This document shows, piece by piece, positions 2,296-61,966 of a stretch of DNA of 64,000 nt (position 1 is its first letter; each line of letters starts with the position of its first letter). The notes under the pieces are model-generated. The model saw only the letters and a program-made list of their open reading frames with translations, was not told the origin of the DNA and did not search any database. The position numbers were made by a program, and so were the translations under genes. The DNA is taken from the IMG/VR virus record IMGVR_UViG_3300028042_000005, positions 1 through 64,000 of that record. One strand, 5' to 3'. The DNA is from a virus.

Positions 2296-2327
2296 GCCTC
2301 AGGACCATGCGTTCTGGGGCTTTTTTG
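2296..2327 (+). terminator. Rho-independent terminator
   Basis: Stem GCCTCAG (2296-2302) pairs with CTGGGGC (2314-2320), one G:U pair, followed by TTTTTT. Confidence 0.6.
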
Positions 2328-2360
2328 CGTCCAGCTTTTTGTCTTGAATATGTGAGTCGG

Positions 2361-3002
2361 ATGTTCTATGATCCATCCATGAACAAAGAGACTTTCGAAC
2401 GGATCGTTGAAGAGCACCAAGACTTTCTCGATGGTAAGCCCTGTGGCAAAAGAGCTGAATTTAAAGAGGTGAGCTTGAAGGATATGACGCTGGAGGGTGT
2501 GGATCTCTCGCAAGCCTCTTTTGACTCGGTTGACTTTTCGGAAGTAAATGTTTCAAACGTCAATTTTTCAAATGCAGCGTTCCATAGCTGCAACATGACG
2601 GCTTGTTTTTGTGGGTCCAAATTCAACAAATCGACCTTCAATTTCACATCGATGATTGACTCAGAGTTCTCTTCCTGCGAATTCAAAGGAACAAAATTTT
2701 ACGTAACCCACATTCTATCATCCAATTTGCATGATTTAAAAGTTGAAGGGGGAACTTGGAGCTTTGGATGGCCGCGCGTTTCAACAGAGAACTATGCGGC
2801 CTATATGCTTACCCCTAGAGTTGTTACTATTGGCTGCACAACGATGGGAGTTCGAGATTGGCTTGGTGAAAAAGGCAGGAAGCTTGCCAATAGTGAGTAC
2901 ATTGATGGGTTGGAATACTCCACTTTGCTGCATTGGGTTCGAGAGTTGGATGTGATTCCGGCGGAGGATCTCGGGTATAAGGCTGAGTCTTGCCAGCAGT
3001 AA
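2361..3002 (+). CDS. Pentapeptide-repeat protein, paralog 1 (213 aa), with a conserved C-terminal GTW..GWP...IGC...WL domain
   Basis: Degenerate A(D/N)LxG-type repeats (VDLSQASFDSVDFSEVNVSNVNFSNAAF...). The C-terminus aligns with the two minus-strand paralogs. The start was chosen downstream of the terminator. Confidence 0.75.
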   Translation: MFYDPSMNKETFERIVEEHQDFLDGKPCGKRAEFKEVSLKDMTLEGVDLSQASFDSVDFSEVNVSNVNFSNAAFHSCNMTACFCGSKFNKSTFNFTSMIDSEFSSCEFKGTKFYVTHILSSNLHDLKVEGGTWSFGWPRVSTENYAAYMLTPRVVTIGCTTMGVRDWLGEKGRKLANSEYIDGLEYSTLLHWVRELDVIPAEDLGYKAESCQQ

Positions 3003-4387: not shown

Positions 4388-4698
4388 GCGCACTGACTAA
4401 AAACGCTCTTTCGTGGGGACTTTTAGAGTCCCAAATTTTGTATTACTTTCCACACCTTGCTCATAAATCATGGGGAGAACCAGTTGACGACTCTGTCTAT
4501 GATTTTGTTGAGGACTACTACACAAAAACATTCAACATGCAGCGCCCTGGACCCCCAAACGTTGAGCGTCCTAGCTCCAGGCTCATAGTTAATAAGCTGG
4601 GGAGCCCAAGGAAGTCGTCAAAGCTCATTGTTGATGTCGCGTATAAAGAGCTAACTGGCAAAAAAGCAAAGAGAACTTCAAAGAAGAAAGTTAAATAA
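4384..4698 (+). CDS. Hypothetical protein (104 aa) with a lysine-rich C-terminus, translationally coupled to the Panacea gene
   Basis: The GTG start overlaps the upstream TGA (GTGA). No motif recognised. Confidence 0.5.
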   Translation: MSALTKNALSWGLLESQILYYFPHLAHKSWGEPVDDSVYDFVEDYYTKTFNMQRPGPPNVERPSSRLIVNKLGSPRKSSKLIVDVAYKELTGKKAKRTSKKKVK

Positions 4699-4699
4699 C

Positions 4700-4981
4700 A
4701 TGCAACATCTCAACAATGAACAGCAACACGTCTTCGGCAAGGTGTTTCGCTCTCCCAGCACTTTGGAGCTATTTCGCGCAGCGCTTGGAATTCTGAAACT
4801 CGAATCAACAAAGGGTGGTGAGTTTGAGAATGCATGCGTATCGCGCATGGAGCGGTTAGAAATCCTTGCAAACGGGCCTCTTGTTACAAAACAAGCCATG
4901 GTAGCCTTGGTCAATCGAGCAAAAGATGTTATCTTGTCTCGGATGATTCTTTTTGAAATGACCAAGCAGGTGGCAAAATGA
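4700..4981 (+). CDS. Hypothetical protein (93 aa)
   Basis: Complete ORF, tightly packed against its neighbours (ATGA overlap with the next gene). Confidence 0.5.
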   Translation: MQHLNNEQQHVFGKVFRSPSTLELFRAALGILKLESTKGGEFENACVSRMERLEILANGPLVTKQAMVALVNRAKDVILSRMILFEMTKQVAK

Positions 4982-5415
4982 ACTCCAGGTTTAGAATCCT
5001 CCACATTTTGACCATTCTCTTTGCCGTTGGATGTGAAGAGCCAGAAGAACTTCCTCCTCCAGCTCCCCAGGAGCGTCCAGGTTATCCAGCTTTGGATCCT
5101 GAGCCAGAGCCCCCGAAGCCAATGAAAAGCGGTGACGAGCTTTGTGAGGCGTTCTGGGAGTGTTCCGTAGGGTGTGGGGAGATTGTGTTCGGAAACGCTT
5201 TTCAAACCCAAGACAAAAAGCTGGAGTGTCTTGAATTTTGCAAGCTCCCCAATTTCGTCACACAGGAGACTGGGGAGGAATGGGGACAAGCTTGTTCGAT
5301 TCTCGTTTCTCCAGATGACAAAAGCTTTGCGGCTTTGCAGCTCCAAGTATGTGACGATGGGTTGGAATTCTGCTACCATTTGGGCGACCTCAGCGATGCG
5401 TCTAAAAACGAATAG
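4978..5415 (+). CDS. Putative Cys-rich lipoprotein (145 aa)
   Basis: N-terminal signal MNSRFRILHILTILFAVGC with a lipobox-like AVGC. A Pro/Glu-rich linker is followed by a Cys-rich region. Confidence 0.55.
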   Translation: MNSRFRILHILTILFAVGCEEPEELPPPAPQERPGYPALDPEPEPPKPMKSGDELCEAFWECSVGCGEIVFGNAFQTQDKKLECLEFCKLPNFVTQETGEEWGQACSILVSPDDKSFAALQLQVCDDGLEFCYHLGDLSDASKNE

Positions 5416-5477
5416 TTTTGATTATTTAGTTTGGATTATTTTTTGATTTCGAAACAAAAAACACAAAACACAAAGTC

Positions 5478-7859: not shown

Positions 7860-8959
7860 AGCAGCGTCTAAAAAACATGATCAGAAGCAAGAAATTCAAG
7901 AGAGGTGTGAATTTGTGCTCTGAAATTTTGAACACCGTAGTGGAGTTGCAACAGAATCTAAAACCTGTCAATGTCCTGCATTCTGGGCTCAAAATAGCAG
8001 ATACAGTCCTTTCCCAGCAAGAGGCCTCAAAAACATGGTGCGATGGATTCACACACATATCGGTGGGATTTTTAGAGTCTCAAATTATTGAGTGCCTTGA
8101 GAGTAAAGGTTTGCGAAAATACACAGGAGACTTGAATGACTCTGGGCTCCCAATTTTTGAATTCTCTTGTGGGGAGTTTAGGTTTGTTTGGTCTGAGTCT
8201 GACGATAGGGCCGTTGACGCCATTTATGTAAACAATTCCGACACAAAATTAGCGAAAAAAATACTAAGCGACGTTTTGTGGGAGAGTCTGGAGTCGTGTG
8301 TCATCACCCTTAGAGAAAACCAATCTTGGCCGACTGTGGAGAAGGACTTGTCTGATCAAACCCCATACCATTCCGAAGTCGCAGACGAAGCGTGGAGAAG
8401 ATCGGAGCCGATGATTGAGGCTGGTCATAACACATCCATTCTATTTCACGGACCGCCAGGAACTGGCAAATCTTCGGCGGCAAGGCAAGTCGCGAGTTTG
8501 GTGGGGAAAAGGGTTGTTCGGGTGGGCTCCAAAGTCATTGGCGACCTTACCGTTTTGCAACGTGTTGTTGCATTTTTGAGTCCGGACGCAATCATCGTCG
8601 ACGACATCGACAGAATCTCTGATTCGTTTTTAGAGACGTTCGACGAACTCAAGGTTTTGGCCCCAATTGTTGGGACGCTCAACAGCATGAGCGACATCGA
8701 TCAAGCTCTCCGTCGGCCGGGACGTTTTGATGAAATCGTTTTTGTCGAGTTTTTGGATCAAGGCATTCTCGGCCCCATGCTCAAAAATGTTCCGGAAGAT
8801 GACGCAAAGAGACTTGCCCTCCTCCCAGCAGCCTATATCAAGCGATATCTTGACATTTCGAAGTTTTTGAGCCAAGATGAGGCGACGCTAGAACTCCCAG
8901 CTTTAGAAAGCCGATGTTCTGGAATAAACAAAACTTTTTCCAAGGACGAAGAAGGGTAA
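7856..8959 (+). CDS. AAA+ ATPase (classical AAA clade) with an uncharacterised ~190-aa N-terminal domain
   Basis: Walker A GPPGTGKS, Walker B IIVDDID, and LRRPGRFDEIV (second region of homology). Confidence 0.8.
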   Translation: MKQRLKNMIRSKKFKRGVNLCSEILNTVVELQQNLKPVNVLHSGLKIADTVLSQQEASKTWCDGFTHISVGFLESQIIECLESKGLRKYTGDLNDSGLPIFEFSCGEFRFVWSESDDRAVDAIYVNNSDTKLAKKILSDVLWESLESCVITLRENQSWPTVEKDLSDQTPYHSEVADEAWRRSEPMIEAGHNTSILFHGPPGTGKSSAARQVASLVGKRVVRVGSKVIGDLTVLQRVVAFLSPDAIIVDDIDRISDSFLETFDELKVLAPIVGTLNSMSDIDQALRRPGRFDEIVFVEFLDQGILGPMLKNVPEDDAKRLALLPAAYIKRYLDISKFLSQDEATLELPALESRCSGINKTFSKDEEG

Positions 8960-45874: not shown

Positions 45875-48817
45875 ATGAGCAACACAGGAAAACCATTCGT
45901 CTCATTTACCAACGGCAAGCTACCTGGAGTCGAGGATCTCAAGGATAGATTCTTTGAGTTCTTGGACGACCAGCAAAAAAGCACCATTGCTAGGGTATAT
46001 AACAGTGAGGGAATTTTTGACTCCGCAATTTCGCTGCTGTCTCCTGGCAATGACCAGATTTCCTTGACTGGTTCGAGTCTGGCGACTGATGGGCTAGGGA
46101 ACGTTCTTGACATCAATGGAGACTTTGCCTATTGCCAGAATGTGCAATTCGAAAACTCCTCTGCTGTGAGTTATGAAGTTACCCTGCATGTTGTTGAGGG
46201 CCCAATGCTTCATAGTTCTGACAACACAATTCTTGTCAATGCAAGAACTGGAGCGCCCGAGTACCTTGGTAGAATGAATTATATTGGGGAGTTAGGCTCT
46301 CCAGACTCTGTGGACATTCTTGGCTCGACGATCACTCTTGTTATCGACAGCTTGTGTGAAGCCGGAGTAAGTCATGCTGGGAGGTATGTCGTCCCGTACA
46401 TGAAGTCTCCGAGTGCTGTGCATTCCGATGTTGGGCTACCTATTCTCCAGGTTCAGTGGGTTTCCGGAGAGAACGTTGTTGTTATTGACACAACGCTTCT
46501 TGGTCAAACCGCCGCTAGCACCGACCCTGCCGATTATGAGGTTATTGTTTTCGGCCCGACTGTCAGAAGGAACTCGACGAATGTTGGTGTTTCTGGGTAC
46601 GTGAATGTCGGAACGGCGCTAGGAACTGGCGCAGGAACAACCCCTAGTGTCTTTGGGATTTCTGGCCAAAGCCCTATCACAATCTCATTGTCAGAGATTA
46701 ACAACGCCTTTGCAAACTTCGTGACAACAGAGACCGCTTCTTCAAGTGGAGCTGGAGGAAAGACCTCTCCAGCAACGGCGTTTGGTTATGGAGGATCGGC
46801 CCAGGTCAATAGCAACATTTACGCGTTCGGTGGCATGTCCGGAGTTTCTCCTGGAATCACGTATTACTCTCACACTTTGAGATACGACACGACAACGGAC
46901 ACGTGGTTCACCCTACCCGCCATGAGCGCTACACTTGCGGGATGCGCCTGTGTGGCTCGTGGGGCGATTATTTATGTTGTGGGCGGTACAGACGGAACCT
47001 CCGTATTCAACACTGTCAGAAGATTCGATACAGTCTCTGAGACGTGGCTATCGAATGCGGCGAGTCTCCCAGACGGAGTAGCTTTTGGAACTTTGCTACT
47101 GTCCGAAGACGGACGCTTTTTGTATCATGTTGGAGGGTCGAGAGACGCGTCCTTTACCCCAACGGACAATGTTCATCGATACGACGAAGCTTCGGACGCC
47201 TGGGATTTGCTTACTCAACTTCCAGCAGAGTTTGTTGCGGTCTCAATTCCTAATGCAACAATTGTTGGTGATGACATTTATGTTATGGGAGGCACCAATA
47301 GGCTAGATTCGCACAATCCACCTCTTGTGAGCATGGTGGTTTCTGTTGATTGCCAGAGGTATAATATAACGTCATCTTCCTGGACTATTCTGCAGGACTC
47401 ACCATATCAAAGCCTTCGAGGGAAGCCTGCGTGTTTTTATGAAAATGGACTTATTCATTTGCTCTGTGGGGACTATTGGCGGTTTACTTTCTCAAACGAG
47501 AGGCCGTATATAGGAACCAAACACACAACGTTTTCAATCCATAGTCAGGATTGGACGGCAATGCCAAGAGGAAAGGCTTCTTGTAGAAGAGGAGTCTCCT
47601 GGGGGCTTGTGGGGGGCGTCTTTTATACGTTTGGTGGATATGATGTTGATGTTAATCCACAAACCCAAGCGTATGCGGTTGACTTGTCTGGAGTGCAAAG
47701 CTCTTCGGGGCCAGGCGCCTGCATTTTGTCTTCAAACCCCAAAATTTCTCTTTTGGGGTTTGGAACAAATTCGTCGTATGGGAATTTGATTAACGCAAGA
47801 ACTAGGTTTGGTGCGGCAAGGTTTGCAGATGGCATCATTATTGTTGGGGGAATCGATAACTCTGGAAACTACATGAGTGAGTGTGAGGTTTATTGGCCCC
47901 AAAGCAACACCTCCCAGCCTCTTTTGGATCTTCCAGCTTCAAGGGCGAAGCATAAAGTTATTGTACTTTCCGACAACAAGGGGGAGGAGATGGCATACGT
48001 TCTTCCTGGGGCAGATGATAGTGCATCGCCGAACCAAATAGATTCGCAAATCTACTCCATTGGTAGTCAGCAGGTCCATCATGGAGGAGTTGGGGTTCCT
48101 TGGGGAGTCAGATCTTCTGGGCCGGTGTTGAGAGATTATAACGTTGGAATAAAAGGTTCTCTTATTTATTTTATTGGCGGAACAAACGCGGCCGGAACTA
48201 ATCAGTCGGCGATTCAGGCGATGGACTTGGATACTGGAGTTGTTCATTCCAACGTTGGTCAATTACCATCTGCCCTGACGGATCTATCTGGATATCAGGT
48301 CGGGGCCTCAGTTTATTTGTTTGGAGCCACTTCCTCAACTAAATGGAAGGTCAATCTGGATATTTTGGACGACAACTCTTCAAACACTGGAGAGGTCGTT
48401 TCTGCGTCTTACAACACGGTTTTGGTGCCAGACTTTCCGGCCATTGATTCATGGGATGGAGGGCTGTTTGTAACAGGATCTTCAGGGCTCGATCGTTATG
48501 TTCAGGCGTTTGGTTATTTTGAATTGGCCGGGTCTGCTCCAGCCGCGAGAACTGGAAATGAAATGTTTTGCTTTGGTGGAGTTGCTTACTCACTTGGAGG
48601 CTCGTCCGACACGCTGTTTAATGACTCTCATAGTGGGATTGCCGCTTGGAATCTGCAAAATGAATGGGCCAGAGAATCCTCCGACCCTGGTCCAATTCAA
48701 AACTTCAAAGCTGGAACTATAGGAACAACCGTCGCTTTCAATGCCGGCGATCCGTTTGGTATTATTAGCTATAGCGCATCTGATGAGTTTACATATGTGT
48801 CAATCGGCGCCGTTTAG
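45875..48817 (+). CDS. Large distal tail fibre / receptor-binding candidate with Kelch-type beta-propeller repeats (980 aa)
   Basis: Repeated blades: IYAFGGMSG, IYVVGGTDG...RFD..SETW, LYHVGGSRD...RYDEASDAW, IYVMGGTN. A second set follows: FYTFGGYD, IIVGGIDN, IYFIGGTN, CFGGVAY. Confidence 0.6.
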   Translation: MSNTGKPFVSFTNGKLPGVEDLKDRFFEFLDDQQKSTIARVYNSEGIFDSAISLLSPGNDQISLTGSSLATDGLGNVLDINGDFAYCQNVQFENSSAVSYEVTLHVVEGPMLHSSDNTILVNARTGAPEYLGRMNYIGELGSPDSVDILGSTITLVIDSLCEAGVSHAGRYVVPYMKSPSAVHSDVGLPILQVQWVSGENVVVIDTTLLGQTAASTDPADYEVIVFGPTVRRNSTNVGVSGYVNVGTALGTGAGTTPSVFGISGQSPITISLSEINNAFANFVTTETASSSGAGGKTSPATAFGYGGSAQVNSNIYAFGGMSGVSPGITYYSHTLRYDTTTDTWFTLPAMSATLAGCACVARGAIIYVVGGTDGTSVFNTVRRFDTVSETWLSNAASLPDGVAFGTLLLSEDGRFLYHVGGSRDASFTPTDNVHRYDEASDAWDLLTQLPAEFVAVSIPNATIVGDDIYVMGGTNRLDSHNPPLVSMVVSVDCQRYNITSSSWTILQDSPYQSLRGKPACFYENGLIHLLCGDYWRFTFSNERPYIGTKHTTFSIHSQDWTAMPRGKASCRRGVSWGLVGGVFYTFGGYDVDVNPQTQAYAVDLSGVQSSSGPGACILSSNPKISLLGFGTNSSYGNLINARTRFGAARFADGIIIVGGIDNSGNYMSECEVYWPQSNTSQPLLDLPASRAKHKVIVLSDNKGEEMAYVLPGADDSASPNQIDSQIYSIGSQQVHHGGVGVPWGVRSSGPVLRDYNVGIKGSLIYFIGGTNAAGTNQSAIQAMDLDTGVVHSNVGQLPSALTDLSGYQVGASVYLFGATSSTKWKVNLDILDDNSSNTGEVVSASYNTVLVPDFPAIDSWDGGLFVTGSSGLDRYVQAFGYFELAGSAPAARTGNEMFCFGGVAYSLGGSSDTLFNDSHSGIAAWNLQNEWARESSDPGPIQNFKAGTIGTTVAFNAGDPFGIISYSASDEFTYVSIGAV

Positions 48818-49273
48818 GCAGCTTTGAAGAACAAACGCCCCAGCTCTCATGGTTTTGACCTGATTTATAGTGACTTCGGGATCGACTGGTGGAGCTGGGG
48901 CCATCAGATTCTCTGGATCCTCAGAGTGCTCTGCGCCAAGTGCGTGAGCGATTTCGTGCGCCAGAATGACGGAGTCTCGTGTGGACTCTCCAACTTTGGT
49001 GCATTTGTCGTACGAGTCCAATCTTCCCAGGTATCCCTCATAAATACCAAAGGACATGGAGACAACTCCTGGAGCTGGGAAGGGAGCTTCTTCGATTGAC
49101 ATCCCGATCAAAAACTCTGCGTCGTCAATAATGTCTTGGTCGCCATCCATTTTGTTTTGAAAGAACACGGAAACGACCTCGGAGTATCCAGGCTCTTCCA
49201 TCGATTCTCCAGCAGACTGATCGCATGCTACGCAGATGGAGAGCGTCGCTAGAGCCAGTAGTTTAGAAACCAT
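48800..49273 (-). CDS. Small lipoprotein metzincin-type zinc metalloprotease (157 aa)
   Basis: Signal MVSKLLALATLSICVAC (lipobox-like). HEIAHALGAEH matches HExxHxxGxxH, with a downstream Met (ENLMAP). It overlaps the 3' end of the fibre gene by 18 bp, convergently. Confidence 0.65.
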   Translation of the reverse strand: MVSKLLALATLSICVACDQSAGESMEEPGYSEVVSVFFQNKMDGDQDIIDDAEFLIGMSIEEAPFPAPGVVSMSFGIYEGYLGRLDSYDKCTKVGESTRDSVILAHEIAHALGAEHSEDPENLMAPAPPVDPEVTINQVKTMRAGAFVLQSCLNGAD

Positions 49274-50675: not shown

Positions 50676-51629
50676 TCAATCATTTTGGGGCACCCAACCA
50701 AGCTCTTCGTTGGTTTGAGCCGCAAGAGAGCGTAGCCAGAAGATGAGAGTTTGGTGTTCGATTGATCCCGCGAAGCCCTCGTCTTCCGCCAACTGCTTAC
50801 CCTCGTTGCCAAGCCAAGCGCCGATTTTGAGTGTTGTGCAACCAATTCGAACCATGCCCGGGTAACGCATCTCCGCATCATAACGACGGCCTTGGATCCA
50901 TGGCCATCCATTTAGCCATGTGCCATTAGACACTTTAGTCCCGTTGAGACTTGTGTAAATGAGACTTACGCCGCGGAGGTTTATGTCGGTGAGAATTGCT
51001 CCCCGAAGGTCTGCTCCCTGGAGGTCTGCTTCCCAAAGGTTTGCTCCCTGGAGGTTTGCTCCCCGAAGGTCTGCTCCCTGGAGGTCTGCTTCACGGAAGT
51101 CTGATTCACGGAGGTTTGTTTTCCGGAGGTCTGCTTCCCAAAGGTCTGCTCCCTGGAGGTTTGCCCCCTGGAGGTTTGCTCCCCGAAGGTCTGCTCCCCA
51201 AAGGTCTGCTTCACGGAAGTCTGCTTCACGGAAGTCTGCTTCACGGAGGTTTGCTCCCCGGAGGTTTGCTCCCCGGAGGTTTGCTCCCCGGAGGTTTGCT
51301 CCCCGGAGGTTTGCTCCCCGGAGGTTTGCTCCCCGGAGGTCTGCTCCCTGGAGGTCTGCTTCCCAAAGGTTTGCTCCCTGGAGGTTTGCTTCCCAAAGGT
51401 TTGCTCCCTGGAGGTTTGCGTAGCTGAGGTTGGTATTTATGAGTCTCGCTTTTCCAAAATCTGAATTCTTAACGTTTGCGCCACGAAAATTTAGACCGCA
51501 AAGATCCAAGTTGTAAAAATTCATGCCCCTAAGGTTCGCTCCGCAAAAATCCGCTTCGGAACCACCCTCCTCCCCTCCCACAAACTTTTGGTGCAAGAGA
51601 ATTTTTTTCTCTACTTCATCGCGTTCCAT
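50676..51629 (-). CDS. Pentapeptide-repeat protein, paralog 3 (317 aa), highly regular A(N/D)L(R/Q/W)(G/E) array plus the conserved C-terminal domain
   Basis: About 40 consecutive pentapeptides, including 6 identical ANLRG. C-terminus NGTWLNGWPWIQGRRYDAEMRYPGMVRIGCTT...WLRSLAAQTNEELGW. Confidence 0.85.
   Translation of the reverse strand: MERDEVEKKILLHQKFVGGEEGGSEADFCGANLRGMNFYNLDLCGLNFRGANVKNSDFGKARLINTNLSYANLQGANLWEANLQGANLWEADLQGADLRGANLRGANLRGANLRGANLRGANLRGANLREADFREADFREADLWGADLRGANLQGANLQGADLWEADLRKTNLRESDFREADLQGADLRGANLQGANLWEADLQGADLRGAILTDINLRGVSLIYTSLNGTKVSNGTWLNGWPWIQGRRYDAEMRYPGMVRIGCTTLKIGAWLGNEGKQLAEDEGFAGSIEHQTLIFWLRSLAAQTNEELGWVPQND
51244..51333. repeat. Six perfect tandem copies of a 15-bp unit (cggaggtttgctccc) inside a degenerate 15-bp periodic array of about 440 bp
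   Basis: Direct reading of lines 51241-51340. The copies encode ANLRG x6 on the minus strand. Confidence 0.9.
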
Positions 51630-51656
51630 GCAACAAGCCTATCAATCGCAAACGCC

Positions 51657-52514
51657 TTAGTCAAGCTTTTTCTCTGGAGTCCAACCAAGTTCTTCGTCAG
51701 TTTGAGCCGCAAGAGAGCGTAGCCAAAAGACAAGAACTTGATGCTCTGTCGTTCCGAGAAAATTCACTTCCCCAGCTAAAGCCTCTCCTCTCTCCCCCAG
51801 CCAGTCAGAAAGCGGCATTGTCATGCATCCAATGCGGACAAGTCTCGGACTTTTCATTTCAGCACTATACCGAAGGCCAGAGATCCATGGCCACCCCTTA
51901 GCCCAAGTGCCACCTTCCGTTTTTGTGTGGTTCGTGTTGGCTCTTAGGAGGTTTGCTCCTAAGAAAAGGGCACCATGAATGAAGGCTCCTTGAAAAGACG
52001 CGTCTCTGAGATCTGTATCTCTGAAATCTGCGTTCTTGAGAACTGCTTTTTTAAAATCCGCGCCTTGAAGATTTGCCTCCCAAAAGTACGCATCGATCAG
52101 AGATGCGGACTCAAACTCCGCGCGATGAAGGGTTGCCTCTCCGAAACCAGCGTTATGGAGATTTGCGTTATGGAATCTTGCGAACGAACAATTTGACTTT
52201 CGAAACGACACACTTTGAAGATCTGCTCCGCAGAGATTTGCGGCCGTAAGGGTTGCCTCCTGGAAATTAGCTCCCGATAGTTTCGCGTTTTTGAAACTTA
52301 CGCCCCGAAGATTTGCGCCAGAAAAATCTACGCCACGAAGATCCATGTCGGAAAAATCCACACCTTCGAGGTTTTCGCCTCGAAAGTCCGCTTTGGCGCC
52401 GTCACTCTCTCCGTCCATGAGCCTTTGATGGAGATGGGTTTTTTCCAAGACTTTAGTGCGTGGCGTTCTGTGTTCCATAGCAACAAGTCTATCAAGCGTA
52501 GGCGTCTTAGTCAA
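51657..52514 (-). CDS. Pentapeptide-repeat protein, paralog 2 (285 aa) with the conserved C-terminal domain
   Basis: ADFRGENLEGVDFSDMDLRGVDFSGANLRGVSFKNAKLSGANF... C-terminus GGTWAKGWPWISGLRYSAEMKSPRLVRIGCMT...WLRSLAAQTDEELGW. Confidence 0.85.
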   Translation of the reverse strand: MTKTPTLDRLVAMEHRTPRTKVLEKTHLHQRLMDGESDGAKADFRGENLEGVDFSDMDLRGVDFSGANLRGVSFKNAKLSGANFQEATLTAANLCGADLQSVSFRKSNCSFARFHNANLHNAGFGEATLHRAEFESASLIDAYFWEANLQGADFKKAVLKNADFRDTDLRDASFQGAFIHGALFLGANLLRANTNHTKTEGGTWAKGWPWISGLRYSAEMKSPRLVRIGCMTMPLSDWLGERGEALAGEVNFLGTTEHQVLVFWLRSLAAQTDEELGWTPEKKLD

Positions 52515-52527
52515 GGCTTTTCAGATT

Positions 52528-53939: not shown

Positions 53940-54596
53940 TTAGACTTCCACAACTATAGATTCATTCGCTGCTTTATATCGTGAAGTGCAAGATGACGCG
54001 TTCACGTATGTCGTTTTGTTTCTCACGATACGGCCATATCCTTCATGAATGTGGCCAAAGACATGGAGCTTTAAATTCTTTGTTTCAAGATCCAAAGTTC
54101 TTTTGTTTAGGAGTTCGCAGCCTACACTCACATTTGCGTTCCTTCGTGTGTAATCTGGGCATTCGTCAAGAACGCCGTAAGGCGGACCGTGAGTAATCAA
54201 AACATCCGTTTCGTCTGGGATACGCTCCCAGAAGTCTCTAAGCTCAGGACCTCTTCTGGGAAGGTTGAAGGCCCAATTGTGAAACTCTGGTTGCCATGGA
54301 GAACCGTAGAATAGTTTACCGTCTATTGTAACAGAACTGTCTTTTAGATAAGTGATGTTCAGATCGGACACCACCTTTAGCATCCAGCGAGCCGGCTGTT
54401 CCATGCAAAAATCATGATTACCAGCAATCATAATCTTGTGTTTGTGAGGAAGACTTCCTAGCCAAGATGTAAACTCATCAAGATCGACTCTTGATCCTCT
54501 TCTAGAAAAGTCCCCAGCGTGAATAAGAACGTCCCCATCCGGAATGGGAATTTGCTCGTGCAACATGTGGGTGTCTGAGATACAAACAATTTTCAT
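53940..54596 (-). CDS. Calcineurin-like metallophosphoesterase (218 aa), MPPED/239FB-like layout
   Basis: All five metallophosphoesterase motifs are present: SDTH, HAGDF, AGNHD, ITHGPP, FGHIHEGYG. Confidence 0.75.
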   Translation of the reverse strand: MKIVCISDTHMLHEQIPIPDGDVLIHAGDFSRRGSRVDLDEFTSWLGSLPHKHKIMIAGNHDFCMEQPARWMLKVVSDLNITYLKDSSVTIDGKLFYGSPWQPEFHNWAFNLPRRGPELRDFWERIPDETDVLITHGPPYGVLDECPDYTRRNANVSVGCELLNKRTLDLETKNLKLHVFGHIHEGYGRIVRNKTTYVNASSCTSRYKAANESIVVEV

Positions 54597-55360
54597 TAGA
54601 ACGTTGATCCTGCTAGATCGTTGATTCCAGCAAGCAACGAGAATTCGTAAAAAACTTCTCGTATAGCTTGTTCGTTTGGCTTCTTTGGCAATGGAGATTT
54701 CGCGGAGAGCTTTGAAATCTCTCTCATGTTGTCCTGAATGATAGACATGGTGTCGTCGTGAGAGACTTCCCCATTTCGAATTTTGGATAGAATGTCTCCA
54801 TTACCAGAGACGGAGAACGCCCCACGCTTGAGCATGGATCGCAGGTTTTCGGACAGCCGAACAATTGTCGAAAGAACCTTCAACGTTTTAGACTTCTCGT
54901 AATTCTCTTTCCCATGCTTCAATCTTTTGAGTTCTGCGTTGATATACCCATGGTAGCAGGACTTTACGTTCATAGTCACGAATAACTGAGCGTTTGTTCT
55001 GATGACTTCGATTGCGTCTTCAGGGACGCTATGGCGTTCTTTCATCAACCCTTCTTCAGCGCCGGCCCCCTCCAGCATCTCCATCAAAAGTTCCATGGCT
55101 TCCGGAGACCCTTTGGTCCAAAGCTTGAACATAGAAGAAACATCATGAACGCAAACATCAAGCTTTTGTGTTTCTAAAAACAGATCTTTGAAATAATCCG
55201 AAGACCGAATCGTTCTAAACTTTGAACGCAGTGGATCGATCATTTCTGAGATTGTCGGAACGTAAAAGCCCCGAATGTCAATATCAGAGTCTGGTGCTGC
55301 ACAACCGTACGCGCGAGAGCCCATAACACGAACATAGGATTCTGTATCTTCGAACTTCAT
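54596..55360 (-). CDS. Pol-beta superfamily nucleotidyltransferase (RlaP/PF10127-like), 254 aa
   Basis: MGSRAYGCAAPDSDIDIRGFYVP matches GSxxYG...DSDxDxxG. Confidence 0.6.
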   Translation of the reverse strand: MKFEDTESYVRVMGSRAYGCAAPDSDIDIRGFYVPTISEMIDPLRSKFRTIRSSDYFKDLFLETQKLDVCVHDVSSMFKLWTKGSPEAMELLMEMLEGAGAEEGLMKERHSVPEDAIEVIRTNAQLFVTMNVKSCYHGYINAELKRLKHGKENYEKSKTLKVLSTIVRLSENLRSMLKRGAFSVSGNGDILSKIRNGEVSHDDTMSIIQDNMREISKLSAKSPLPKKPNEQAIREVFYEFSLLAGINDLAGSTF

Positions 55361-61892: not shown

Positions 61893-61966
61893 TGTCCCGT
61901 GGCGAAATGGTGAACGCAGCGATCTTATAAGTCGTGCATATGTGGGTTCGAACCCCACCGGGACGA
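61893..61966 (+). tRNA. tRNA with anticodon TAT (would read AUA, Ile); no encoded CCA
   Basis: Manual cloverleaf fold. Acceptor: TGTCCCG / CGGGACG (U1:G72). Also present: U8 and a D-arm GCGA...ACGC. Anticodon stem: GCGAT / GTCGT, with loop CTTATAA. T-arm: GTGGG-TTCGAAC-CCCAC, a perfect match to the canonical form. The variable loop is 6 nt. Confidence 0.6.

Follow-up and report, generated by a model that had tools for sequence, protein, structure and literature searches.

Pentapeptide-repeat proteins with a shared, uncharacterised C-terminal domain in an uncultured tailed phage

What might three pentapeptide-repeat proteins that end in one and the same domain do for the phage that encodes them? 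The question is raised by a 64,000-nt stretch of IMG/VR record IMGVR_UViG_3300028042_000005 (positions 1 to 64,000; hereafter the window), taken from a 96-kb contig that belongs to an uncultured tailed phage. Two adjacent genes on the minus strand and a distant third on the plus strand encode pentapeptide-repeat proteins with a common C-terminal domain, here called the tail, and we name the three proteins p1, p2, and p3 (Table 1). A preliminary description of this DNA, made from the sequence alone, had read them as candidate DNA mimics directed against host defence. Pentapeptide-repeat genes are common in phage genomes, and in the literature searched we found no functional study of any phage-encoded pentapeptide protein. 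Each of the three proteins combines a predicted rigid, right-handed beta-helix rod with an autonomous, conserved C-terminal module. Neither pentapeptide-repeat proteins as such nor phage forms with a small C-terminal domain are new, although the latter architecture is unstudied; the novelty lies in a tail that lacks both a Pfam entry and a structural neighbour in the PDB, the broader unnamed phage superfamily to which it belongs, and the presence of three length variants in one genome.

Three proteins with one architecture

The phage origin of the DNA, assumed in the preliminary description, is borne out by the window itself, which encodes virion structural proteins, a portal, and a large terminase, whose identity to the terminases of GenBank phages does not exceed 25%. 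Likewise, the open reading frames (ORFs), the matches to PF00805 (233, 163, and 46.5 bits for p1, p2, and p3, against a gathering cut-off of 20.2), and the alignment of the tails all confirm three paralogs that follow one plan, namely an N-terminal cap helix, an uninterrupted pentapeptide beta-helix, and a tail of approximately 85 residues. A six-frame scan of the window with a hidden Markov model (HMM) of the tail found exactly three copies. In the tail tree, p1 and p2 are sisters. The synonymous sites of their tails are near saturation (synonymous divergence, dS, approximately 1.9) and the ratio of non-synonymous to synonymous divergence (dN/dS) is approximately 0.19, indicating that the tandem duplication is old and that the tail is under purifying selection. 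The p3 tail forms a separate, older lineage, which stands no closer to the p1/p2 pair than do homologs of other phages. The earlier statement that three diverged copies have been kept is therefore right in number, but what has been kept is an old tandem pair plus an older lineage. A similar qualification applies to the N-terminal helix motif, which had been described as part of the shared architecture. The motif H-Q-x-[FL]-x-x-G-x-x-x-G is indeed present in all three proteins, with the H, the Q, and both G invariant, but it is a cap common to pentapeptide proteins in general, and is shared by tail-less pentapeptide proteins encoded nearby in phages.

The PF00805 matches, a single-sequence AlphaFold2 model of p2, and the Foldseek matches of that model support the proposal that the beta-helix has a true pentapeptide fold. 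The predicted local distance difference test score (pLDDT) exceeds 90 throughout the p2 array, and comparison of the model with the PDB returned 52 chains at E <=1e-3, of which the best 50 of the 52 are pentapeptide-repeat or designed solenoid proteins. The matches include NP275/276 (2j8k; E = 2.8e-11, TMt 0.85) and HetL (E = 4.1e-11), with QnrB1, AlbG, and MfpA at E of approximately 1e-8. No break occurs in the pentad register of p1 or p2, so that neither rod has loops of the Qnr type. Underneath the p1 repeats lies a tandem DNA array with a 15-bp unit, in which six consecutive units are identical (GGAGCAAACCTCCGG), suggesting recent slippage and a rod length that is apparently still changing. 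The net charges of p1, p2, and p3 are -9, -4, and -11, with isoelectric points (pI) of 4.9 to 6.2. Register analysis shows that the outward charge alternates from coil to coil, between -3 and +4, and that p1 has one ring made up entirely of arginines.

The tail domain and its relatives

Aligned with each other, the three tails have 30 invariant positions. Those of p1 and p2 are 58-60% identical, and p3 is 39-43% identical to the other two; the most distant pair, p1 and p3, gives a BLASTP E-value of 1e-22, a similarity that chance does not explain and that is in line with the shared conserved tail that was first reported. The window tails had no match in Pfam at E up to 10 or in PHROG at E up to 1, while the whole proteins matched no PADLOC model and, in NCBIfam, no models other than those of pentapeptide repeats. 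PDB sequences, searched with a single tail and with the profile of a 24-sequence alignment (A3), contained no true match; the sole hit, a dynein docking protein at E = 0.63, was rejected as noise. DUF5758 (PF19062) was also considered as the identity of the tail and rejected (hhalign probability 0.1%; no PF19062 match at E up to 10).

AlphaFold2 modelled the p2 tail, with alignment A3 as input, at a pLDDT of 94.1 and a predicted template modelling (pTM) score of 0.83. The predicted structure begins with a short-stranded beta-meander (residues 4-41), to which four helices and one last strand are added. Foldseek found no neighbour of this model in the PDB, the best match having E = 1.0 and TM 0.37, and AcrF2 (E = 1.8) was rejected as noise. 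In BFVD, the best probabilities were 0.9-1.0 with TM scores of approximately 0.5 and weak E-values, and the neighbours were phage proteins annotated as 'pentapeptide repeat', 'beta solenoid repeat protein', and 'polymer-forming cytoskeletal protein'. The tail was called uncharacterised at the outset, and it has kept that status after profile searches and structure prediction that gave no match in Pfam, NCBIfam, PADLOC, PDB sequences, or PDB structures.

Word-indexed database searches with A3 and with a second alignment, A2, yielded 2 and 0 matches, respectively, and an exhaustive search was needed to find relatives. HMMER, run exhaustively against 1.84 billion (1.84e9) representative proteins, returned 23 matches, 21 of them true relatives; P0011 and P0019 were rejected as repeat artefacts. 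Most of the 21 combine a pentapeptide array with the tail. Others carry the tail after a YdcK-type or hexapeptide solenoid, or have a Gly/Ser/Tyr-rich region with a single or duplicated tail core, and one is a stand-alone protein of 87 residues. A profile of a distant branch added 50 further clusters of 63-137 residues, all of them labelled 'hypothetical' or named after repeats. Compared by hhalign, the window tails (A2) and the distant branch (A6) align with a probability of 98.6% and E = 6.8e-16, and at this level of profile similarity the two are homologous. The family pattern, G-x-W-x3-P ... [VI]-x-I-G-C-x7-W-L ... followed by a helix, is present in the window tails (A3, A6). Three distant members, P0022-P0024, match PHROG 5353, 7964, 20532, and 32789 over the tail, all four of which are annotated as 'unknown function'. 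In 52 of 71 members, the tail ends no more than 12 residues from the C-terminus; approximately 8 members are stand-alone tails, for example P0032 (78 residues, on a 9-kb contig), P0022, and P0051, and many others have only two to six repeats. The tail is thus not private to this phage, as had been thought, but belongs to an unnamed superfamily that occurs in many other phages, following several types of solenoid or standing alone.

Within this superfamily, the subfamily of the window is scarce. GenBank phages contained no significant tail match for it, and only 3 records for the distant branch. We also scanned genomes with a hand-written degenerate DNA pattern for the strict core motif of the window subfamily. 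The scan gave 3 matches in 596 Gb of prokaryotic genomes, none of which is real, and 5 in metagenome contigs, one of which is. The window subfamily is thus uncommon and, within the scope of these scans, confined to phages.

Across the family, the tail is the conserved and selected part of these proteins, with a solenoid that varies in type and length. In the tail, invariance or near-invariance is limited to I, G, C, W, L, G, and A, the Cys being replaced by Arg in P0016. The family alignment contains no conserved acidic, His, or Ser/Thr position, and the tail appears to be non-catalytic. The pI of family members ranges from 4 to 10 (median approximately 6.7); charge is therefore not conserved, and there is no consistent signature of nucleic-acid binding. 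The tail is a compact, confidently modelled domain that unrelated phages carry after beta-solenoids of different kinds, and it could be proposed as an entry of its own in the domain databases.

Two sets of relatives deserve mention in their own right. In the cultured, T4-like Vibrio phage 1.081.O (Schizotequatrovirus), NVP1081O_188 (4671-5207 of locus L008), a member of the distant branch, has the tail after five-residue repeats of the form 'GGxFx', and is the most tractable relative for experiments. In IMG/VR UViG_3300048837_000263 (locus L002, 4271-4804) and in P0015, long low-complexity regions rich in Gly/Ser/Tyr/Asp take the place of the solenoid in the fusion with the tail core; P0015 has the core in duplicate.

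Among described architectures, that of phage proteins with a pentapeptide array and DUF5758 is similar, in that these also have an N-cap helix, an array, and a small C-terminal domain of uncharacterised function, but DUF5758 itself is unrelated to the window tail. PHROG 5353, 7964, 20532, and 32789, in which a YdcK-type or hexapeptide solenoid precedes the tail, are linked to the window tails; compared to these families, the window proteins have much longer pentapeptide arrays and an extra conserved C-terminal strand, 'LGW-x-P'. A full-text literature search found no paper that mentions DUF5758, and the literature searched held no functional paper on phage pentapeptide proteins with this tail, with DUF5758, or on YdcK-type phage proteins.

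What the rods and tails may do

We tentatively favour the reading, to which we assign a probability of roughly 0.4, that p1, p2, and p3 are cytoplasmic, non-enzymatic phage binding proteins in which the tail is a constant docking module and the rod is the variable part. Their expression would come from the early and replication regions, and they would act stoichiometrically, by binding and without catalysis. The tail would dock on a conserved partner, which might be a host or phage protein of DNA transactions or host takeover, or another copy of the tail, and the rod, variable in length, would offer a surface for interaction or steric effects. The same docking module would then be combined, in the three paralogs, with rods of differing length and surface. 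That one tail serves pentapeptide, hexapeptide, and YdcK-type solenoids suggests that it carries the common function, and the existence of stand-alone tails and of fusions to non-solenoid regions argues against a pure folding-cap role. The early or replication context and the rapid expansion of the array fit a role in host interaction, be it host takeover or modulation of DNA transactions, but do not demonstrate one; the proposed DNA mimicry would count as a particular form of such binding.

Several points weigh against our preferred reading. No neighbour gene common to the loci points to a binding partner. Early expression is read from gene position alone, and the structural evidence consists of predictions, with a full-length p2 model in which the arrangement of tail and rod is not fixed. 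The single near-invariant Cys could still be functional. Finally, the genome scan addressed the strict core motif of the window subfamily, so that restriction to phages is unproven for the superfamily. A bolder form of the binding-protein reading, which we hold to be unlikely, takes the tail as a new fold that defines a large, unnamed phage family for host interference, in which one docking domain on interchangeable solenoid rods would inhibit a conserved DNA-handling or immune component of the host; the three rod lengths would in that case serve, in an arms race, as a set directed at different versions of the target.

The preliminary description had proposed DNA mimicry and counter-defence. 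In this reading, the rods would imitate B-form DNA, as do those of MfpA, Qnr, and AlbG, and would act in counter-defence or as topoisomerase modulators by titrating gyrase, RecBCD, restriction enzymes, or DNA-sensing defence proteins, with the tail adding specificity. We consider this improbable. The window proteins do resemble MfpA, QnrB1, AlbG, and EfsQnr in their right-handed quadrilateral pentapeptide beta-helix, in monomer size, in their mild acidity, and in having a C-terminal element past the helix, and known pentapeptide DNA mimics dimerise via their C-termini. The genes adjoin replication genes, and duplication and repeat expansion would fit an arms race. However, the alternating outward charge and the arginine ring speak against a continuous acidic surface, and the net charges are only small. 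The scores of p1, p2, and p3 against the family models are 83.8, 55.1, and 16.5 bits for Qnr (NF033086; cut-off 240) and 93.5, 36.8, and 22.6 bits for MfpA (NF000349; cut-off 360). In QnrB1, two loops that interrupt the helix are required for gyrase protection; the p1 and p2 arrays have none. Whereas topoisomerase-protecting proteins end in a short dimerisation helix, the window proteins end in an alpha/beta domain, and they also differ from the MfpA group in being phage-encoded and in their alternating surface charge. The best structural matches to the p2 rod, cyanobacterial NP275/NP276 and HetL, share its regular A(D/N)LxG consensus and are not DNA mimics; these are cellular proteins without a tail, and the NCBIfam HetL score of the window proteins is 148 against a cut-off of 260. 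Moreover, the tail is also found on triangular hexapeptide and YdcK solenoids and on arrays too short for duplex mimicry, PADLOC gave no match, and we found no supporting literature. The analogy with T7 Ocr and ArdA is a functional one only, in that proteins of phages or mobile elements bind DNA enzymes stoichiometrically. Both have a different fold and are far more acidic than the window proteins, and we found no sequence or structural similarity to either; searches of Pfam, PHROG, and the PDB gave no similarity to known anti-defence proteins.

It could also be that the tail is a mere structural C-cap and/or dimeriser of beta-solenoids that replaces the C-terminal helix of MfpA and Qnr, in which case the rod alone would confer specificity. 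In most members a solenoid precedes the tail at the C-terminal end, its conserved G-x-W-x3-P segment directly abuts the last repeat, its conserved residues are hydrophobic or Gly, as in the core of a fold or interface, and classical pentapeptide proteins dimerise via C-terminal helices (PMC10886550). A cap is nevertheless hard to reconcile with the repeat-free P0032, P0022, and P0051 and with tails on low-complexity regions, and a single cap would need to fit quadrilateral pentapeptide, hexapeptide, and YdcK-type solenoids; we regard this explanation as rather improbable. Very doubtful, in our view, is a function in exclusion of or defence against competing phages or mobile elements instead of the host. 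It is the neighbours that raise this possibility: the metallophosphoesterase next to the p1/p2 pair matches PADLOC PDC-S10 (E = 6.4e-85), the SNF2 helicase resembles the cores of ZorD, DpdE, and DrmD, and a SocA/Panacea-domain gene lies 600 bp from p3. Yet p1, p2, and p3 themselves match no PADLOC model, the SNF2 similarity is that of a generic helicase core, and the neighbours differ at every other locus. Hardly credible is the idea that the proteins are virion-associated or ejected structural components. Beta-solenoids are common in tail fibres and spikes, solenoid regions have weak PHROG matches to tail-fibre and baseplate families, and the p1/p2 pair lies approximately 2 kb past the end of the structural module, but its genes are on the strand opposite to that module, in an operon-like run with a helicase, a phosphoesterase, and a nucleotidyltransferase. 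Small size and the lack of any significant structural PHROG match also speak against a virion role, as does the position of the homologs in replication or early regions.

The isolated tail, the isolated rod, and three natural rod lengths offer clear experimental handles. If the partner were a host defence or DNA enzyme, dozens of 'hypothetical' phage genes could be annotated; if the tail turned out to be only a cap or dimeriser, this would still provide a useful rule for solenoid annotation and design.

Start sites and gene neighbourhoods

Table 1. Positions of the three genes, their parts, and other features in the window
Feature	Coordinates	Strand	Evidence
p1, pentapeptide-repeat + tail, 317 residues	50676..51629	-	ORF; PF00805 E = 9.8e-71; A3-profile match on tail E = 1.3e-32
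p1 array, ~41 pentads, ~10 coils, no interrupting loops	50949..51554	-	register analysis, 78/82 inward positions canonical
15-bp tandem DNA array under p1 repeats, 28.3 copies, 82% matches	50996..51419	-	Tandem Repeats Finder
p1 tail, residues 228-317	50679..50948	-	alignments A1-A3; HMM match
36-nt block, directly 5' of p1 ATG, overlaps p2 stop codon, TTGACT-17-TAGGCT	51630..51665	-	pattern match; alignment
p2, pentapeptide-repeat + tail, 273 residues	51657..52478	-	ORF; PF00805 E = 8.1e-49; AlphaFold2; Foldseek
p2 array, ~31 pentads, ~8 coils	51936..52391	-	register analysis, 59/62; pLDDT >90
p2 tail, residues 182-273 of 273-residue form	51660..51935	-	alignment; AlphaFold2 model
36-nt block, second copy, before p2 ATG, TTGACT-17-TAGACT with TG extension	52480..52515	-	pattern match; alignment
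p3, pentapeptide-repeat + tail	2361..3002	+	ORF; PF00805 E = 2.5e-12; A3-profile match E = 3.4e-30
p3 array, ~19 pentads, ~5 coils, degenerate	2454..2726	+	register analysis, 27/38
p3 tail	2727..2999	+	BLASTP vs p1 tail; alignment A2
SocA/Panacea antitoxin-type protein, 255 residues	3620..4387	+	PF13274 E = 6.6e-13
Small protein with matrixin-like HExxH motif	48800..49273	-	PF00413 E = 1.3e-6
Metallophosphoesterase	53940..54596	-	PADLOC PDC-S10, full length
RlaP-like / DNA polymerase beta family nucleotidyltransferase	54596..55360	-	PF10127; PHROG 388
tRNA-Ile, anticodon TAT	61893..61966	+	

The p1 and p2 genes are each preceded by a copy of a 36-nt block (aligned copies: CTTGACTAAGRCGYYTRCGMTTGATAGRCTTGTTGC). 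Its pattern has only these two matches in the window, with a chance expectation of 0, and the block is better conserved than the synonymous sites of p1 and p2. Since the distance from block to ATG differs by one base between the copies, this conservation is not for coding. The block contains TTGACT-17-TAGRCT, the end of which is separated from the ATG by 6-7 nt, and there is no visible Shine-Dalgarno sequence. This arrangement suggests that p1 and p2 each have their own promoter and give rise to leaderless or near-leaderless transcripts. The duplicated junction also bears on the start of p2, which had been placed at TTG 52514, the limit of the ORF (285-residue form). Because the same block precedes the p1 ATG, the ATG at 52478 is most likely the p2 start instead. 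The ORF of p3 opens at 2307 (2307-3002), but the ATG there sits within a hairpin and T-run, as read by eye in the sequence, and p3 thus probably starts at 2361 (213 residues), as originally given, or alternatively at 2379 (207 residues).

On the minus strand, p2 and p1 are the last two genes of a tightly packed run that is headed by the nucleotidyltransferase and continues with the metallophosphoesterase and the SNF2 helicase; a DnaC/IstB-like ATPase (a DnaC-like loader) is encoded nearby. The metallophosphoesterase gene is two genes upstream of p2, with the helicase gene in between, and the presence of a full-length match to a candidate defence family inside a phage replication operon at least complicates the defence label of PDC-S10. 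Around p3, small genes that lack Pfam matches form a long run on the plus strand, with the SocA/Panacea antitoxin-type gene downstream of p3. The HExxH protein, which has a hydrophobic, lipoprotein- or signal-like N-terminus and a zinc-protease motif, is encoded at the junction of the structural and replication modules. The tRNA-Ile gene is the only tRNA gene in the window.

In every other locus read, the setting is early, replication, or accessory, and never structural. The neighbours are Dam, DnaB, and SSB in L003; ThyA, a resolvase, and a second pentapeptide gene with a Cys-rich C-terminus in L005; RecT and a C5-methyltransferase in L002; an HNH endonuclease in L007; NinG and a polymerase exonuclease in L020; and a methyltransferase and HicB/Arc in L022. 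In L008, the gene lies in a T4-like block of small genes. L003, a 42-kb phage contig, has a pentapeptide + DUF5758 gene and a pentapeptide + tail gene (4814-5476 and 8001-8723) only 3 kb apart. Both proteins have the same N-terminal 'H-x-x-W-L' cap and differ in their ends, which suggests pentapeptide cassettes with swappable C-terminal domains. In L005, the tail-bearing pentapeptide gene (868-1764) is followed by the second pentapeptide gene (1780-2535), whose product has a C-terminus with the spacing C-x9-C ... C-x15-C, possibly a zinc-binding module.

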